Positions 9,412 through 36,600 of a stretch of 64,000 bases of DNA are shown here, piece by piece. Positions within the stretch are counted from its first letter, which is position 1. The number at the start of each line of letters is the position of its first letter. The position numbers were made by a program, and so were the translations under genes. The stretch spans positions 1-64,000 of IMG/VR virus record IMGVR_UViG_3300048924_000191. One strand, 5' to 3'. Under the pieces are notes generated by a model, which saw nothing but the letters and a program-made list of their open reading frames with translations, was not told where the DNA came from and did not search any database. This DNA is from a virus.

Positions 9412-9594
9412 TCAAATACCAAGCCACGCGGTTAACCCATACTTGATGGCGATATCCTCGAAAGTCCACGCGCAACCAACCGCTACAAATGCCGACAGGT
9501 AGAACCGACACAACCAGTCGTTGGGTTTGCACATCGATGGGACTACGAAGAACCAACCAAAGGCCAAGAACATAGTGATCAATGCAAACTTCAT
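9412..9594 (-). CDS. small membrane protein (60 aa, 2 predicted TM segments)
   Basis: ORF track. Its ATG overlaps the stop of the ATPase gene (ATGA). Hydrophobic stretches: FALITMFLAFGWFFVV and FYLSAFVAVGCAW. Confidence 0.5.
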   Translation of the reverse strand: MKFALITMFLAFGWFFVVPSMCKPNDWLCRFYLSAFVAVGCAWTFEDIAIKYGLTAWLGI

Positions 9595-12029
9595 GAGAAC
9601 TCCACATGTTGATTGTAGGTGTGCGGAAAGTTGATATTGCGGTCATCGAGGATGATGATCTCAGCACCCGGGAACGCAGTCTGCCCATCTAAGCTGTGAC
9701 TGATGATCAACACTTGCGAGAAGCGAGGATTGTCAATCAGGCTCTTCAGGAACGGAATCAGGTTCTGTCGGTGAGCGGCGTCGAACGTACCACCGAGCTC
9801 ATCGATCCACAGTGGGTAGTCAGTCAGGTCCATGCATTCATAGCCAGTCAGACGCATCGACTGATTGACGATGTCCTTTACGCTGGTACTACCTGCACTG
9901 ATATCTGGACGTGGCGTATCCCCAACGATCATCGGGAACTTGTAGTCAACTTCCGTCTCACCCGGTTCCCCAGCTTCGATGTGAAGTGAGTAACCCCAGA
10001 CCGATTCGATCACGTTGTTTGCACAACCCAGAATACGACCCAGTTGGTTCTGGATGTGTTCTGCGATCAGACCGTTTTTCGGAGACATGGCCGCAACCAG
10101 ACCGTCGTAACCTTCCTGCCGAACGAGCGCCTGCTTGAGTTTGTTCTCCAAGTCCTTAGCCAAGGTCTCGTAGGTTTCATTCTCATTGAGTGCAGCTTCA
10201 TGGATACCCAAGGTGACTTTCGTCTTCCTGATGAGTTCCATGATGGCGTGGTCACCTTGCAGGTTCATGTAGTCGATCAGTTTACCGCGCAGTGATTCGT
10301 ACGCACGTTCACAGTCTTCGACCTTACGTTCCCACTCAACCATCTTGAAGTAAGCTGTCTCGATACGAGCCTTGCGACGCTTCGCATCTCCAACTCGAGC
10401 GAACAACAAGTTGTACTCAGCCAATGCAGCATCGTAGTCAGCAAACGCACCTGCCAACTCACCAGCCTCAAGCTTCATGTTACGCAGCGCATTCTCGAGT
10501 GTGGTGATGTTACTTTCCAAACGTTGACGTTTAGCCGCTACGGTGACGTCGCCTTCGTAGATAGCAAACTTCGACAGAATCTCTTTGCCGAGGTCTTTCC
10601 ACCCGAACCGATCGAAGAACGAGAACAGACCACTGTACGTGCTGCTGTAACGATCCCTGAACTCATCCAGACGACGATACGCATTCAAGACAGCTACCAT
10701 GTCGCTCAGCTCTTCTTCGAGCTTACGCACTCGCATGGACTCGCTCTCTGCCAGCGCCTCGCCCTGATTGATCCGAGCTTGCAGTGCTTCCAACTCACCC
10801 GGCTTGATGCCTGGCTTGAAGCGACTGTGGCAATCAGGACATTCCACTTCTTCGCACTTGTGGATGTAGTCAGCATTCTGCTTGAGCGACTCAAGCAAAC
10901 CGACAATCTTGCCAAGACGGATCTCAGCCTGATGGATGGTTTCTTGCTTAGACGTAGCATCGGCTTCTGCTGGTTTCTCAGACGGAAGATCGGCGATAAT
11001 CCACCGAAGATCGTTTGCGATCTGAGAGGCAGGGATCAACAGCGACTCATGGATACCCGTACGCAATGTAGGTACCTCTGAGAGCTCCTCTCGCAGCCGT
11101 GCTAGCTCGTTCTCGATCGTCTCAGGGGAGACTTCGGTCAGAGCCGCTGCACGCCCTTTACGCTGCTCGCAGTCGGTCAGTCGTTGAGCACGTACATTGA
11201 GCTCGCCTTGCAGGGTATTGAGTTGAGCCTCAGCATCGGCCTTGAACTGAATCAGCTGATCCATACCCAAAGCCCCTTCAGTCTTCGGATACTCACAATC
11301 GAGGAACATGGCGATACTGTCGATGGTCCTTTCCAGATCCGACAACAGCTCGAACGGGTCACGCTCATCGGCATTGGACTTGGGTTCCATCATGAGCATG
11401 TCGAGGGTATCGTGCAGCTCTTTGGCTTTTGCTCGCATTGAAGCGATATCGTCAGGGTCCATCATCCGACGTTTAGCTTCAGCCAGCTCACTACGCAGAT
11501 ACTCGACAATCTTGTCGGTAGCGTTAGCCTGACGCTTGTAGTGGTTGTAGCGATCGAAAGCGTAGGTGAAGTCTTGCTCGCTGAACTTAGCGATCCAGTG
11601 CTGACGACGTTTGGCTTCCATCGCAGTGAACCGCGACTTCTCCTGACCGGTCAAGAACGCGTGCAGATCACGATCGTAACCACCAAGATACTGTTTGATC
11701 AGCTCCAACTGAACGGTGATGGTACCACCGCGGTTAAGGTTCTCCCCACCGTCGACGCTGAAGGTATAACGGTTCTTGTCACCGTACTCAGCAGTCTCGT
11801 GATAGTGACGGCCTTTGTGGTGGAACTTGACCGACCAGAAACCCGGCTTATCAAAGTTGTGAGGATCTGGTGGGATAGGAGAGAAACCCAACTCCAGCAG
11901 ACTGCTCTTACCGCTACTGTTAGTGCCCAGCACCATTTGAACCCGAGAGGTAGGACGAATAACAACTCGTTCCTTACCGTTAAGCGCTGTACGGTTACAA
12001 CGCTCAAGAATAATTTCTTCGTAAAACAC
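9591..12029 (-). CDS. Rad50/SbcC-like SMC-family ATPase with CxxC hook (812 aa)
   Basis: Walker A GTNSSGKSSLLE near the N-terminus. Long charged, coiled-coil-like middle containing ECPDCHSRF (zinc-hook-like CxxC). C-terminal Walker B and D-loop: PLWIDELGGTFD ... VLIISHS. GTG start with GGAG upstream. No SbcD/Mre11 gene is adjacent. Confidence 0.7.
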   Translation of the reverse strand: MFYEEIILERCNRTALNGKERVVIRPTSRVQMVLGTNSSGKSSLLELGFSPIPPDPHNFDKPGFWSVKFHHKGRHYHETAEYGDKNRYTFSVDGGENLNRGGTITVQLELIKQYLGGYDRDLHAFLTGQEKSRFTAMEAKRRQHWIAKFSEQDFTYAFDRYNHYKRQANATDKIVEYLRSELAEAKRRMMDPDDIASMRAKAKELHDTLDMLMMEPKSNADERDPFELLSDLERTIDSIAMFLDCEYPKTEGALGMDQLIQFKADAEAQLNTLQGELNVRAQRLTDCEQRKGRAAALTEVSPETIENELARLREELSEVPTLRTGIHESLLIPASQIANDLRWIIADLPSEKPAEADATSKQETIHQAEIRLGKIVGLLESLKQNADYIHKCEEVECPDCHSRFKPGIKPGELEALQARINQGEALAESESMRVRKLEEELSDMVAVLNAYRRLDEFRDRYSSTYSGLFSFFDRFGWKDLGKEILSKFAIYEGDVTVAAKRQRLESNITTLENALRNMKLEAGELAGAFADYDAALAEYNLLFARVGDAKRRKARIETAYFKMVEWERKVEDCERAYESLRGKLIDYMNLQGDHAIMELIRKTKVTLGIHEAALNENETYETLAKDLENKLKQALVRQEGYDGLVAAMSPKNGLIAEHIQNQLGRILGCANNVIESVWGYSLHIEAGEPGETEVDYKFPMIVGDTPRPDISAGSTSVKDIVNQSMRLTGYECMDLTDYPLWIDELGGTFDAAHRQNLIPFLKSLIDNPRFSQVLIISHSLDGQTAFPGAEIIILDDRNINFPHTYNQHVEFS

Positions 12030-32886: not shown

Positions 32887-33318
32887 ATGGAAGAATCCGG
32901 GGGTTCTATGAACGTGAAATCTGCTATCGGTCTGATGGCGAGGAACCCGGCGGTGGACTTTCCGTGGCAGCCGGCCCTGATCAATCTGATCAATGGTTTT
33001 GTTCCCGCGGATCGTCAGTTGGACCCACTCACCGCAGAGGCGAAGGAAGTTCAGGAAGCCATCGGCTCGATGGACGCCTCGCTGCAGGAGATGGTCTATA
33101 ATTCTAACTTGGATTCGGTCAATGTAATCGATCCTGTGCCAGCACCAGTCGCTGTGATTAAAAATAGCCGTTCTAACCTCCTGCTGTTGTTTGCCTTCAC
33201 GTTGTGCGCTTGCGCACTGATGATGGTGTGGAAGGTAGGTGACGGAGCGACCGGAGCCGATGTAGTTGAGATTCTGAAGCTGATTCTGAGTGTCGTTACT
33301 GACCAGCCTGCGACTTGA
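32887..33318 (+). CDS. hypothetical protein with C-terminal transmembrane segment (143 aa)
   Basis: ATG abuts the previous stop. TM-like segment: NLLLLFAFTLCACALMMVW. Confidence 0.5.
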   Translation: MEESGGSMNVKSAIGLMARNPAVDFPWQPALINLINGFVPADRQLDPLTAEAKEVQEAIGSMDASLQEMVYNSNLDSVNVIDPVPAPVAVIKNSRSNLLLLFAFTLCACALMMVWKVGDGATGADVVEILKLILSVVTDQPAT

Positions 33319-33326
33319 CCTGAAAG

Positions 33327-33362
33327 GCATACAGCCGGTGGCGCAAGCCACCGGCTGTATGC
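33327..33362. terminator. bidirectional hairpin, copy 4 of the repeated element (2-bp compensatory insertion)
   Basis: gcatacagccggtggc gcaa gccaccggctgtatgc, between stop 33318(+) and stop 33370(-). Confidence 0.7.
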
Positions 33363-33369
33363 TGTCTCT

Positions 33370-33660
33370 TTATGTTGCAGGGTCTGCGTAGAAAGATCCG
33401 AAGAACTCTCGCTGAAGAACATCCTGAGCGTCTCGACATTTCATCGCATCGTAAAACCAAGAACTATCACCCCAGTCCATGTGTCCGATAGTCCCCACAT
33501 TGAAGTAAGGTTTACCGACGTAGAACAGGATCTTCTCTTCCTTGATCTTCGCTTGCTGCTCAGCCCACCACGTTTCCTTGTAGATGGGCTTGACCACCTC
33601 ATTTCGCGACATGTTGCCATGCAGCATCCGAAGAGCGGTGGTGAGACTTCCCCTAAACAT
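33370..33660 (-). CDS. hypothetical protein (96 aa), third gene of the CYTH-like cluster
   Basis: ORF track. Its ATG lies inside CTATGTTTAG, overlapping the upstream stop by 8 nt. Confidence 0.45.
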   Translation of the reverse strand: MFRGSLTTALRMLHGNMSRNEVVKPIYKETWWAEQQAKIKEEKILFYVGKPYFNVGTIGHMDWGDSSWFYDAMKCRDAQDVLQREFFGSFYADPAT

Positions 33661-33835
33661 AGCGCAGAGGACGAATCGGGTCGTTGGCAGCGCGCTGTTT
33701 CACCAGCCAGTACTTGAGGATCTGGAGCGTAGATCGGGACTTCCCACAGTTACGACCACCGTGAACTATCGGGATTCGATTACCAGCCAGTTGGTGGATG
33801 GTCAGCTGCAGGATGGGCGCCTTGAGATTAAACAT
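33653..33835 (-). CDS. mini-ORF (60 aa) carrying a perfect Walker A P-loop
   Basis: RIPIVHGGRNCGKSRSTLQIL reads as a beta-strand, then GxxxxGKS, then a helix. It is too short for a complete NTPase fold. It overlaps both neighbours by 8 nt. Confidence 0.4.
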   Translation of the reverse strand: MFNLKAPILQLTIHQLAGNRIPIVHGGRNCGKSRSTLQILKYWLVKQRAANDPIRPLRYV

Positions 33836-34472
33836 AGACGTTCTCCGTGCGGAAGTACTTCTCGTACAGCTCCGCGATCTTTTCCTTAGGACCGGTACCG
33901 TCCGCCTTCATTTCCGGCGAGATGATAATCACCTCATCGTGAGTGAACGGAACCGGGAAGTTCTTGACGTCAGGACGTGGATCGTCAGGATTCAGTTCGA
34001 TATCGACCTTAGCCCATGGAACGATCTTGCCTTCCTTGTTCAGGAACAGGTCGACTTCCCACTTGAACTCGATACCATTCTCGAACGAACCTGGAATGAT
34101 GAACCGAGTCTTGATCAGGCCTTGATCGGCCATCAACTTGAACTGCTCCAGCTGTTCCTCGCGAGAAGGGTCCGGTACCTCGACTTTGCCCTTATCACCG
34201 GCATTGGTCTTGGTACAGAACTCGTACTCGACGCGGTCATCTGGATGGATGGTCTTACGAACGCGCAGGGAGCCGTCTGAGGCGTTTTTAGGAGTCTTGG
34301 GTACGTAGATACCCCATTGCTCCTGACCCTCGTGGGAGACGGCCATGGACTTGATCTGCTCGACATCAAAACCCTTCAAGTAGACTTCGAGTTCGTACTC
34401 GAGATTCTTACTTTCGAATTCTGCAGTCGGTTCGTTGAACGCCAGCTGGTCAATCAGACACGGTTTGAACAT
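33828..34472 (-). CDS. CYTH / triphosphate-tunnel-metalloenzyme-like protein (214 aa)
   Basis: Alternating charged beta-strand pattern typical of TTM barrels: LEYELEVYLK, LRVRKT, VEYEFCTKT, KTRFII, FKWEVDLF, AKVDIEL. The canonical ExExK is not exact. Confidence 0.4.
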   Translation of the reverse strand: MFKPCLIDQLAFNEPTAEFESKNLEYELEVYLKGFDVEQIKSMAVSHEGQEQWGIYVPKTPKNASDGSLRVRKTIHPDDRVEYEFCTKTNAGDKGKVEVPDPSREEQLEQFKLMADQGLIKTRFIIPGSFENGIEFKWEVDLFLNKEGKIVPWAKVDIELNPDDPRPDVKNFPVPFTHDEVIIISPEMKADGTGPKEKIAELYEKYFRTENVYV

Positions 34473-34493
34473 GGGTAAAGTCCTCAGGACGAC

Positions 34494-34524
34494 AAAAAAA
34501 ATACGTCACCTTATTAGGGTGACG
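34494..34524 (-). terminator. intrinsic terminator (hairpin plus U-tract) for the 654-aa gene
   Basis: On the minus strand, cgtcacc ctaataa ggtgacg is followed by tATTTTTTTT. It lies about 110 nt after stop 34636. Confidence 0.6.
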
Positions 34525-34635
34525 CCGCAGACTCTCAGAAGAGAGCCCACGGGTCGTCCATCTATTCCAAGTTGGTTACTGGGATTACTCCCATCGATAT
34601 CGGTTTGGTAAGTGGGACTCCCTGACGAGACGCCC

Positions 34636-36600
34636 TTACTTGATCACACTGAGGACAAAGTTCTCAATGCGGTTCGAGAAAGGCGTAACCTCGATCAGGT
34701 AGTTGTCCGAAGTCGACAGGAGCACGCGCGCGTTCACCGAACCGGGGAGGCTGCGGCTGAGCGCTTCGAAGATCTTGCGGATGGATTGCGACAGGTTGCG
34801 CTGCTGCGCCATGGTCACGGAGAGACCCGTGTCTTGCACGTTGGCGGAGAGCACGTTGGAGAGACCCAGCTCGTCCAGAGAACCATCGACCGAGATCACT
34901 TCCAGGAAGTCCAGGAACACAACCGACGGCAGGTCGGCAGCGCCTTCGTGCAGATCACCCACGGTGTCAGCAACGTCTTCCTTGGAAGCATAGGCGCAGG
35001 CCATGCTGGTGATGTAGCGGCTGCGATCGCCGAGAAGAGAGGCGAATTCCGCACTACGGCGTTGGGCAATTACGCCCAGCAGCTGCTCGAAGTTCTTGGC
35101 GAAGTTCATCTGCTTGACGGACGCGAACTGGAACTGGTACTTCAGCGAGCGCAGAACCATTTCGGTGAAACGCTCGTTCAGCTTGTTCCAGATGGATTCG
35201 TTGAACTGAGGACGCAGGTCGTTCATGAGCTTTGCCGCTGCAACCAGAGAAGGCGCTGCAGCTACCTGATCAATCAGGTCCATCTGCGACCAGTCACTGG
35301 CGTTCATCGGCGTACGCATGTAACCCAGGAAGACGTCGACTTCTTTCTTGTCGGCCAGCATGCGAGCACGACCGGCGAAGGTTGCAGTGACGATACTGTC
35401 GACAGGACGACCTTCGGTCAGCTGTGGGATTACCGCGACGATTTCATCCAGCTTGTCAACCAGGTTGACGGACTTGGCAGGAGCAGCCGACGGTGCGTCG
35501 ACGTGGTCCAGCGTGTCGCCAGTGCTGCGGGCAGCTTTCAGGCTGACTGCGGCGGAGCGGCGTTCTGGGTTTTCTTCGCCACGAGCATCGCGGACTTCTT
35601 GGTTCAGATAGCTGTTTTCTTTGGTCACGTCTTCCAACTCCTCTCGTACATTTCCATCTGCGTCCTTCACGTAGTACTTCACATAAAGGTTAAGATCATG
35701 CCAGGACGGAATAAAGCCGGCATTATCGTCATCGTCCGATGCATGGGTACTGGTGATCTCCCACTTGCTGCGGTGAGCCACTACCCAGTGTTCGCCTGCC
35801 ACCCAGAACTCCCCGAATGGGTCGGCCTTGGTGAAGTCAGGTCCTTCTACCCGGTGCTTCTTCTGATGCACCAAGCTTTCGACCGAGTCCGGATGAGGGC
35901 GTTCATCAGAACTACGATCGCGGTCACGCTCACGTTCCCGCTCAACAGGACGCTCTTCGCGTTCTGGTTTGCGGTTATCGTCAGAGTCACCGTTGAAGCC
36001 ATCTTCCAGCTGAGTGATCAGCGACCACGGATCGGAATCATCCGCATCGGAAGTGCGACGTTTGGAATCACGGCTCTTGCGCTCGCCACGGCTACCGCTG
36101 CCGTAGTCATCACTGCTACGGTCACCACGGCGATCACCGCGGTCACGGCTACCACGACGGCTGCCACCACCGTAATCGTCACGACGATCGTCATCGCGGT
36201 CGTCTTCATCACGACGACGGCGATTCCCACGAGACGGACGGCAGACTTCGAGGAAACGCTCCTCGGCATCTTTCATCTGATCGTAGGTACGGTTGGACAG
36301 TTCATCAGCCAGTTTACGGTCGGCCAGAATGACCGACGCAAAGTGACCATCGACGATGTCTGCAATCGCATCTTCCAGGGCTTCGGCATCAGACTTGCGG
36401 TCGTCAGCGTACTTGCGGAAGATCTCACGCTCAGAGTCTGCGATCACATCGATGAGCTCATTGAAAGCAGCGCATCGCCAACCACGGTCGGACATCATCT
36501 TGTAGTACGCGTCTCGAAGATCCGAGTCTCGCGCTTTGTCCTTGATATACCTGGTAGCCTCGTCATACGCGGCATCCCAGAATTTGTTTTCTCGACTCAT
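34636..36600 (-). CDS. hypothetical protein (654 aa) with an internal ~118-aa Arg/Asp/Glu/Ser mixed-charge low-complexity region
   Basis: ORF track. Residues ~121-238 read RPSRGNRRRRDEDDRDDDRRDDYGGGSRRGSRDRGDRRGDRSSDDYGSGSRGERKSRDSKRR...ERERERDRDRSSDE. Ordinary globular-looking sequence flanks it. The gene starts 25 nt downstream of the RNAP beta-N gene. Confidence 0.65.
   Translation of the reverse strand: MSRENKFWDAAYDEATRYIKDKARDSDLRDAYYKMMSDRGWRCAAFNELIDVIADSEREIFRKYADDRKSDAEALEDAIADIVDGHFASVILADRKLADELSNRTYDQMKDAEERFLEVCRPSRGNRRRRDEDDRDDDRRDDYGGGSRRGSRDRGDRRGDRSSDDYGSGSRGERKSRDSKRRTSDADDSDPWSLITQLEDGFNGDSDDNRKPEREERPVERERERDRDRSSDERPHPDSVESLVHQKKHRVEGPDFTKADPFGEFWVAGEHWVVAHRSKWEITSTHASDDDDNAGFIPSWHDLNLYVKYYVKDADGNVREELEDVTKENSYLNQEVRDARGEENPERRSAAVSLKAARSTGDTLDHVDAPSAAPAKSVNLVDKLDEIVAVIPQLTEGRPVDSIVTATFAGRARMLADKKEVDVFLGYMRTPMNASDWSQMDLIDQVAAAPSLVAAAKLMNDLRPQFNESIWNKLNERFTEMVLRSLKYQFQFASVKQMNFAKNFEQLLGVIAQRRSAEFASLLGDRSRYITSMACAYASKEDVADTVGDLHEGAADLPSVVFLDFLEVISVDGSLDELGLSNVLSANVQDTGLSVTMAQQRNLSQSIRKIFEALSRSLPGSVNARVLLSTSDNYLIEVTPFSNRIENFVLSVIK

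Follow-up and report, generated by a model that had tools for sequence, protein, structure and literature searches.

A CYTH/TTM-fold gene and two small overlapping genes in a phage of the phiKZ type

CYTH triphosphatases are scattered across jumbo phages, and roles in nucleotide degradation or the nucleotide pool have been proposed for them (Iyer et al. 2021, PMC7824862). The hallmarks of the CYTH superfamily are an eight-stranded antiparallel beta-barrel tunnel with a C-terminal plug helix and an N-terminal ExExK motif, the latter being absent from some CYTH clusters (PMC8233210). Designed P-loop prototypes are polypeptides of about 40-55 amino acids (aa), built as strand, P-loop and helix, that bind phosphate ligands (bioRxiv 10.1101/2020.07.30.228619; PMC10119929). 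Here we describe a locus on the minus strand of a viral DNA, IMG/VR virus record IMGVR_UViG_3300048924_000191, in which a gene of the CYTH or triphosphate tunnel metalloenzyme (TTM) fold is chained to two small open reading frames (ORFs) of 60 and 96 codons. The window is the whole stretch that was analyzed, positions 1 to 64,000 of that record. In our reading, to which we give a probability of about 70%, the TTM gene is followed by a separately translated, inserted orphan gene and by an accessory gene, the three forming one unit bounded by hairpins (Table 1).

Like the CthTTM/NeuTTM-type CYTH triphosphatases (PF01928, cd07761) and AtTTM3, the 214-aa product of the first gene is predicted to form an eight-stranded tunnel with a C-terminal helix; its first and last strands bear acidic pairs, and its basic residues follow the pattern RxR, K and KxR. 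It and its homologs differ from those enzymes in having ExExE or ExExV in place of ExExK, in a sequence below the Pfam threshold and in about 25 extra N-terminal residues. As in the survey of Iyer et al. (PMC7824862), a CYTH-superfamily enzyme is found in a jumbo phage, but here the location of its gene is constant in a broad range of phiKZ-like phages. The 60-codon gene resembles phage 'morons' and other small accessory insertions, being an extra, small, lineage-restricted and fast-evolving gene between genes that are adjacent in relatives. Unlike a moron it has no promoter or terminator of its own and would borrow its expression through a duplicated stop/start overlap. Its product shares with the P-loop prototypes a hydrophobic stretch, a GxxxxGKS loop, a predicted helix and a length of about 60 residues without a Walker B motif. 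The prototypes were designed from ancestral reconstructions, whereas the 60-aa ORF is a natural orphan gene, known here from sequence, and the most conserved part of its product is the C-terminal tail rather than the loop.

Layout of the three-gene unit and its first gene

The first-pass annotation had described three minus-strand ORFs chained by CTATGTTTAR overlaps, and all of its coordinates were borne out. At both junctions the ATG of the next ORF lies 5 nt ahead of the stop of the preceding one. The 214-aa protein ends in ..NVYV, the 60-aa protein reads MFNLK..GGRNCGKS..RYV and the 96-aa protein starts with MFRGS... The degenerate 10-mer CTATGTTTAR occurs twice in the window, both times at these junctions, against 0.14 occurrences expected, and the two copies of the exact 9-mer that the junctions share are 175 nt apart. 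By itself this repeat is unremarkable because short direct repeats are common in the window (120 exact 10-mer pairs within 600 nt, compared with 37 in shuffles). It is meaningful because its copies sit on two consecutive gene junctions and on both edges of a 175-bp indel. The 214/60/96 arrangement was recovered on contigs of four separate samples, including one variant contig in which 28 of the 1103 bases of the unit differ while all three frames remain open. The layout is therefore neither an assembly artefact nor the result of a sequencing frameshift.

Hairpins lie on both sides of the unit. The upstream one closes the preceding 654-aa gene and separates the unit from the genes before it. 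The downstream one begins about 10 nt past the stop of the 96-aa gene, is common to the convergent plus-strand genes and is found at the same position in all relatives aligned. It is a putative bidirectional terminator, terminator-like by sequence. An Rfam scan of positions 33000-35000 returned chance-level matches only, on the terminator hairpin. The upstream hairpin is held in a spacer of about 160 nt (34473-34635) between the upstream gene and the TTM start. A similar spacer of 155-173 nt precedes the TTM gene in relatives, and it presumably houses the promoter of the three-gene unit.

Table 1. Positions of the features of the three-gene unit in the window
Feature	Position	Strand	Basis or remark
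Predicted CYTH/TTM-fold triphosphatase gene, 214 aa	33828..34472	-	fold search, charged residues, DT01 ortholog
Orphan 60-aa gene, purifying selection, invariant tail AANDPIRPLRYV	33653..33835	-	comparison of lineages
Walker-A-like loop GGRNCGKS, residues 26-33	33737..33760	-	conserved in every ortholog
96-aa small gene, fast-evolving, of variable length, ending just before the terminator	33370..33660	-	conservation
EF-Tu N-terminal look-alike KPYFNVGTIGHMDWG, residues 50-64	33469..33513	-	V55-H60 invariant across the family
Junction 1, CTATGTTTAA	33828..33837	-	TTM stop and 60-aa gene start, 8-nt overlap
Junction 2, CTATGTTTAG	33653..33662	-	60-aa gene stop and 96-aa gene start, 8-nt overlap; in empty-site genomes this sequence joins the TTM and 96-aa genes
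175-bp segment, unique part plus one junction copy	33653..33827	-	175-column alignment gap in L006 and L030
Terminator-like hairpin and T-run	34503..34525	-	8-bp stem with 5 GC pairs, then ATTTTTTTTG
GC-rich 17-bp hairpin	33326..33363	both	-36.3 kcal/mol, z = -8.9

By predicted fold and active-site pattern, the 214-aa protein is a divergent member of the CYTH/TTM superfamily. An AlphaFold model built from 29 homologs (pLDDT 82.7, pTM 0.77) has eight main strands and a C-terminal helix at residues 196-207. The roughly 25 extra N-terminal residues are of low confidence, with pLDDT <50 at 1-6 and 11-22. When solved structures were searched with the model, the top matches were all TTMs (E 1.8e-4 to 1e-3), with AtTTM3 5a68 (1.8e-4), 3v85 and 5a67 among them. 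The search also returned a Ziziphus adenylyl cyclase of the TTM fold and, lower down, mouse thiamine triphosphatase. For viral predicted structures annotated as CYTH, E is 1e-5 to 1e-12 and the TM-score reaches 0.71. Jumbo-phage orthologs, the one from RP12 being named 'CYTH domain-containing', are among the viral matches, as are CYTH proteins of unrelated phages (E 1e-5 to 1e-7, TM-scores 0.46-0.68). Giant-virus mRNA 5'-phosphatases are weaker structural matches.

The pattern of charged residues agrees with the fold. E27, R70, R72, K88, E98, K121, R123, D141, K155, D157 and E159 are invariant in the family; E25 is present in >90% and E27 in all of 32 aligned sequences, and E139 in >90% of homologs. 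Position 29 is E in the clade of the window and V, T or L in RSL2, FLC9 and Goslar. The charged residues alternate on or just before the eight main predicted strands, E25 standing two residues ahead of the first. Opposing basic (R70, R72, K88, K121, R123, K155) and acidic (E98, E139, D141, D157, E159) residues are present, as a tunnel expects. The ortholog in Pseudomonas phage DT01 (30% identity, E 9e-18) is syntenic and carries the depositors' note 'CthTTM like protein (cd07761)'. With the fold search, the invariant alternating charges and this note, the CYTH/TTM-like assignment made from the letters alone stands. PHROG 14791, which the protein matches, is of 'unknown function'.

CyaB-type class IV adenylyl cyclases have HF four residues before ExExK and an Ala for the second Glu of the acidic pair, and thiamine triphosphatases carry the signature W/Y-x-R-x-R (PMC8233210). 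In the 214-aa protein S18-F19-E20-S-K-N-L precedes E25, so there is no HF at the required spacing, and its acidic pairs are without Ala, making a CyaB-type cyclase unlikely. The motif that would mark a thiamine triphosphatase reads S68-L-R70-V-R72, with serine at the Trp/Tyr position. Because the motifs of both groups are missing we infer a hydrolase, with metal-dependent removal of the terminal phosphate from a triphosphate substrate as the predicted reaction. A role at RNA 5' triphosphates seems as plausible as one in the nucleotide pool because the gene keeps its place two genes after a polymerase-family gene.

The TTM domain makes up the N-terminal third or half of a longer protein in FLC9 (L001:3854-5818), RSL2 (L002:3956-5476) and Goslar (L003:3893-4786). 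The C-terminal extensions of these proteins are long, mostly acidic and of low complexity, and they are unrelated to the small ORFs of the window.

The 60-codon gene, a probable insertion

The 60-aa ORF is a real gene under purifying selection. Between the three lineages that have it, synonymous sites are saturated (proportion of synonymous differences, pS, 0.67-0.75) while non-synonymous differences are fewer (pN 0.24-0.28), giving a pN/pS of ~0.35. There are 35-37 differences at third codon positions against 14-19 at positions 1 and 2, and a close variant has 5 synonymous changes and 1 non-synonymous change. The other frames across the ORF contain many stops. Three islands are conserved, LAGN, GGxxCGKS and a fully invariant 12-residue tail, AANDPIRPLRYV, and their codons vary synonymously. 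The Walker A loop reads GGRNCGKS, GGNRCGKS or GGRSCGKS in the three lineages, with G26, G27, C30, G31, K32 and S33 invariant. The P-loop that had been noticed in this ORF is thus real and kept in every ortholog. The same annotation had judged the ORF too short for a nucleoside triphosphatase (NTPase), which agrees with its 60 residues and with the lack of a Walker B motif or a complete alpha/beta core, no hydrophobic strand followed by D/E being found in it. Its non-synonymous evolution is about four times that of the TTM gene (pN 0.28 and 0.07, respectively, for L025 against L004).

One could suppose that the ORF is spurious or non-functional and that its Walker A match arose by chance. By a rough estimate, ~1-4 chance matches to GxxxxGK[ST] are expected in the six frames of 64 kb; the window holds 3, one of them in a non-coding frame, and the ORF has no significant family match and a low-confidence AlphaFold model. 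However, the purifying selection is clear and confined to this frame, the motif residues and the 12-residue tail are invariant despite synonymous codon differences, and the frame is open across lineages whose synonymous sites are saturated. We therefore consider a spurious ORF very improbable. The other in-gene Walker A match in the window (..VLGTNSSGKSSLLELG.., ~11927, minus strand) falls in an 812-aa ORF at 9591-12029, which is probably a genuine ATPase.

By the searches made, the gene is a lineage-restricted orphan. A word-indexed search of 5.8 billion proteins with the 60-aa ORF found only a 98% variant, and an exhaustive phmmer search of 1.84 billion representative proteins only the L025-type ortholog. 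The sole matches in both protein sets are thus the ORF's own orthologs (P0030 and P0036). A tblastn search of phage genomes found nothing, and DNA pattern scans for the mini-gene in IMG/VR and the Joint Genome Institute (JGI) metagenomes gave 0 matches. Similarities to P-loop families are insignificant (Pfam AAA_14, E 0.17; a PHROG terminase, 0.064; PDB RecD, 0.89), as is that to PADLOC PDC-S01 (E 0.034), and NCBIfam gave none.

To place the gene in time, the TTM loci of relatives were compared. The 175-bp segment is present in the three closest lineages: the window and its variants (L035-L038), L025/L026 (TTM 73% identical) and L004 (69%). The next-closest genomes (L006, L027 and L030; TTM 65-66% identical) have an empty site, where the TTM gene ends in ..NVYV and overlaps the MF(R/Y)GS.. 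start of the 96-aa homolog through GTCTATGTTTAGRGGA, the same junction. In L006 and L030 the DNA alignment has a clean 175-column gap, from just after TATGTTTA to before G(A/G)GGA. The insert is flanked by a duplicated 8-10-bp junction, (Y)ATGTTTAR. Because the junction is duplicated around the insert, the two junctions are identical, the downstream ORFs start with MF and the upstream ORFs end in (Y/H)V. Neighbor-joining of the TTM proteins places the genomes with the insert in one clade (232/300 bootstraps), nested in a six-member group (286/300). The other members of that group and all outgroups are without the 60-aa ORF. A single gain of the 175 bp would be the simplest history.

Direct repeats of 8-10 bp favor precise deletion. 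Such repeats flank the segment and the bootstrap of the insert clade is only 77%, as might be seen if the 60-aa gene were ancestral and repeatedly lost by precise deletion between them. That history needs at least 2-3 independent losses against one gain. The ORF is found in no outgroup among ~25 loci and has no homolog elsewhere in the databases searched, and we regard repeated loss as improbable. A transposable element or miniature inverted-repeat transposable element (MITE) was also considered for the segment and rejected: an 8-10-bp direct repeat is present, but the segment lacks terminal inverted repeats, occurs only once in the window and has no homolog among public collections.

The insert might instead be a diverged 175-bp tandem duplication across the junction of the TTM and 96-aa genes, or a partial duplication of the 96-aa gene. 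Frame arithmetic is in its favor, since duplicating 175 bp across that junction alone yields an in-frame MF..YV ORF with identical junctions. There are also weak hints in the 60-aa and 96-aa proteins, both of which have an MF start, a hydrophobic stretch, His14 and GN. The only hhalign match pairs QLAGN with MLHGN, and 2 of the 6 Smith-Waterman DNA comparisons with shuffles are nominally significant (p = 0.003 and p = 0.007). Those DNA alignments, however, lack the colinearity that the model would require, vary from genome to genome and contain many gaps, and their p values carry no correction for six tests. The hhalign probability is 0.1-0.2% against both flanking genes, and nothing in AANDPIRPLRYV corresponds to ELYEKYFRTxNV, the conserved C-terminus of the TTM protein. 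Taken with these points, an origin by duplication is unlikely, if still to be kept in mind.

Two further explanations were put forward in the first-pass annotation, and neither held. One was that a P-loop NTPase gene had split or was decaying, its halves being the 60-aa and 96-aa ORFs. The two are adjacent and overlapping, and each has a P-loop-like segment (GGRNCGKS, and the EF-Tu-type NVGTIGHMDWG). Fused versions were sought among relatives and none was found in ~30 related loci. The ORFs stay separate and mutually dissimilar, a profile comparison of one with the other finding nothing, and this weakens the idea. In genomes with the empty site the 96-aa homologs stand alone, keeping their MF(R/Y)GS start and overlapping the TTM gene directly. 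The 156 aa of the two together are too short and have no Walker B, purifying selection acts on each ORF in its own frame, and contigs of several samples exclude a sequencing frameshift. A split gene is scarcely credible on these grounds.

The other proposal was a product joined by +1 recoding, that is, programmed +1 frameshifting at GTT TAR giving TTM-60aa, 60aa-96aa or TTM-96aa fusions. Every downstream ORF is indeed in the +1 frame of the upstream one, one junction sequence is used twice, and the distant TTM homologs of RSL2, FLC9 and Goslar have long C-terminal extensions. The ATG, however, is kept in 9/9 junctions although its Tyr/His codon could end in C. Val-tRNA on GUU re-pairs poorly on UUU, and a +1 shift is disfavored for that reason. 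The small ORFs have no sequence relationship to the extensions of RSL2, FLC9 and Goslar, the TTM gene of many relatives stops directly at the terminator, and no fused product was found in any database. We give frameshifting almost no weight.

A separately translated gene gained by insertion is thus the reading that we prefer. In an ancestor of the three sampled lineages, 175 bp would have been inserted exactly at the stop-start overlap of the TTM gene and the third gene, with duplication of the junction. With the duplicated junction the new gene would at once have acquired a start and a stop codon together with translational coupling to both neighbors. Ribosomes would then terminate and re-initiate at the overlapping ATGs, yielding three separate proteins. 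The 60-aa protein, being too small for an NTPase, is most likely a small binding protein with a glycine-rich anion-binding loop and an invariant C-terminal docking tail; a minimal subunit is also possible. It may bind the TTM enzyme or else a host factor. The tight coupling suggests that it is co-expressed with the TTM enzyme. Any partnership between the two would be recent and optional, because the TTM gene occurs alone or with unrelated C-terminal extensions in other phages.

The 96-codon gene and EF-Tu-like small phage proteins

The 96-aa family ranges from 37 to 112 aa and is absent from several relatives, and some members end right after GTIGHRG or GTIGHVS. Among closer members pN is 0.19-0.39 and pS 0.60-0.86, indicating purifying selection. 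The source annotation starts the gene at an internal Met (85 aa, P0031). We favor the overlapping upstream ATG because the N-terminal MFRGS..LHGN is conserved across relatives.

The only invariant stretch of the family is V55-H60, within KPYFNVGTIGHMDWG (NVGTIGH). A family profile searched against PDB matched almost solely the EF-Tu N-terminus, its strand and the start of its P-loop (E 3.7e-4 to 0.02, 87 sequences). In NCBIfam four EF-Tu models are the only matches, aligning residues 45-67 with model positions 5-27 (E 0.019-0.07). Because the codons of the motif vary synonymously, the constraint acts on the protein. The GK[ST] of the P-loop is lost in most members, the window protein reading GHMDWGDS, and the 96-aa protein is therefore not a GTPase. 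A translational GTPase or EF-Tu was rejected in the same way, as only the N-terminal segment matches, GHVDHGKT is incomplete and some homologs end at GTIGHRG, whereas such a GTPase has the motifs G1 to G5 in a G domain of ~200 aa. A tblastn search of phage genomes with the 96-aa ORF gave motif-level matches only. The protein would be a fast-evolving accessory protein with the EF-Tu-type strand as its sole invariant feature. This strand and P-loop remnant went unremarked in the first-pass annotation.

The first 25-35 residues of EF-Tu recur in small hypothetical proteins of unrelated phages. Aggregatibacter phage S1249 encodes one in D11S_2248 (59 aa) and Vibrio phage henriette (12B8) another in VPDG_00052 (59 aa; ..GHVDYGKPTLTAIL..). 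The segment is also found in gp88 of Pseudomonas phage Dolphis, in gp217 of the Erwinia jumbo phage Kwan (Kwan/Wellington; ..GHVDWGMSPLTAAV..) and in S14_184 of Shewanella phage 1/4. Pseudomonas jumbo phage HRDY3 (PQ015379.1, ~210.2 kb) has it in an unannotated frame (L039 ~1887-2345; ..GKPHINVGTVGHIDWGLHPLAQALDRV..). The loci of the segments are L040:1366-1665, L041:1471-1650, L042:789-1067, L043:376-747, L044:565-744 and L039 ~2000-2100. The HRDY3 frame lies between two annotated genes and resembles EF-Tu residues ~9-36; it could represent either a small gene that annotation missed or a fragment of a decayed tuf gene.

PHROGs 27465, 12626 and 28329 hold EF-Tu-like small phage proteins as 'unknown function'. 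At the position of DHGK the His is recurrently changed to Trp or Tyr in the EF-Tu-like small proteins, giving DWG or DYG. The 96-aa ORF is like the proteins of these PHROGs in its NVGTIGH(V)D core and in the His-to-Trp/Tyr change. It matches PHROG 27465 by the motif alone (E 0.01), and it differs from all three in that its N-terminal 45 residues are specific to the phage group of the window and GK[ST] is lost. Literature searches for phage mimics of the EF-Tu N-terminus gave nothing relevant, the peptide string finding only papers on the plant immune elicitors elf18/elf26.

EF-Tu serves several defense systems as target or component: Lit and type IV Thoeris cleave it, and Avs7 contains it (PMC13581612). 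Both small genes might accordingly encode free-standing 'strand plus P-loop' decoys, one of the EF-Tu N-terminus and the other of an AAA+ or superfamily 1 (SF1)-type Walker A (LAGNxxPxVxGGxxCGKS). The idea is compatible with the data because both peptides are constrained as proteins and EF-Tu-like mini-proteins recur in unrelated phages; we nonetheless rate it a long shot. If it were true, the decoys would hinder host factors or immune systems whose action involves cleaving, co-opting or relying on those NTPases, and insertion with junction duplication would offer an easy route for adding further decoys downstream of a gene already expressed.

Genome context and meaning of the locus

Its gene content marks the source as a jumbo phage of the phiKZ type. 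Among the proteins of the window are a major capsid protein of the PhiKZ type (PF25620, E 1.8e-134) and one of 562 aa that matches PHROG 2943 ('polymerase', E 5.5e-116), whose gene is two upstream of the TTM gene. They belong to a conserved block in the order major capsid protein, 368-aa gene, PHROG 2943 gene, ~640-aa protein and TTM gene, and the three-gene unit is located at the end of it. DT01 has the same order as the window, with a phiKZ gp123-like non-virion RNA polymerase subunit, a 641-aa protein, the TTM ortholog and a convergent RuvC block; the PHROG 2943 gene is syntenic with the gene annotated as that subunit. The capsid protein, the PHROG 2943 gene and the DT01 synteny are in keeping with the earlier suggestion of a phage with RNA polymerase genes of its own.

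Besides the window protein, 28 TTM homologs of 207-244 aa were collected, on contigs of up to 248 kb that are mostly metagenome or read-archive assemblies. Homologs at ~30% identity are found in the Ralstonia/Burkholderia phages RSL2, RSF1, RP12 and FLC4-9, in Xanthomonas phages, in Pseudomonas phage DT01 and in Escherichia phage Goslar. The synteny is kept in 8/8 homolog contigs looked up. Near-identical DNA was not found among GenBank phages.

The 654-aa protein (34636-36600, minus strand) encoded between the polymerase-family gene and the TTM gene has a ~620-650-aa counterpart at the same position in relatives. It has a long low-complexity middle rich in Arg, Asp, Gly and Ser (..RRRRDEDDRDDDRRDDYGGGSRRGSRDRGDRRGDRSSDDYGSGSRGERKSRD..). 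It matches PHROG 36323, of unknown function, marginally (E 8.6e-4), and in PADLOC/NCBIfam its match to Cas12a is sub-threshold (E 0.014).

Several points weigh against our reading of the locus. For the TTM assignment, the TM-scores of the model to solved TTMs are only ~0.4, and the 214-aa protein has no match in Pfam (E up to 10) or NCBIfam. Pfam CYTH (PF01928) is the family most often matched by its homologs, but sub-threshold, in 4/29 of them with a best E of 0.042; the DT01, RP12, RSL2 and Goslar orthologs are also below its gathering score. A sequence profile of the TTM family searched against PDB gave nothing relevant. In the ExExK motif both glutamates are kept and the Lys is replaced (ExExE). 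For the insertion, several precise deletions across the flanking direct repeats could leave the same pattern as one gain, and the 175 bp were not traced to any donor. An AlphaFold model of the 60-aa protein (3 sequences) has two helices and a loop at pLDDT 53 and is uninformative. Translational coupling of the three genes and their promoter are proposed on the basis of sequence. Any binding of the small proteins to the TTM enzyme is conjectural, and in other phages the TTM gene is alone or unrelatedly fused. None of the EF-Tu-like small proteins elsewhere adjoins a TTM gene.

The locus is more ordinary than first proposed: enzyme and phage both belong to known kinds, and two small accessory genes, apparently coupled in translation, follow the enzyme gene. 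CYTH enzymes in jumbo phages were already known, and the DT01 ortholog was already labelled CthTTM-like, so current understanding is not overturned. The interest lies in what remains, namely the mechanism of insertion, a natural 60-residue Walker A protein and the EF-Tu-like mini-protein family. What is new for a CYTH enzyme is the fixed place two genes downstream of a polymerase-family gene, which makes a role at RNA 5' triphosphates worth testing. The junctions offer a clean natural example of promoterless gene addition, in which duplication of an 8-10-bp stop/start overlap would supply a start, a stop and translational coupling in one step. The inserted gene encodes a natural 60-residue protein that keeps its Walker A loop under selection, an object so far studied mainly as designed prototypes. 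The EF-Tu-like mini-proteins, undescribed in the literature searched, could point to a host-interference strategy shared among phages.

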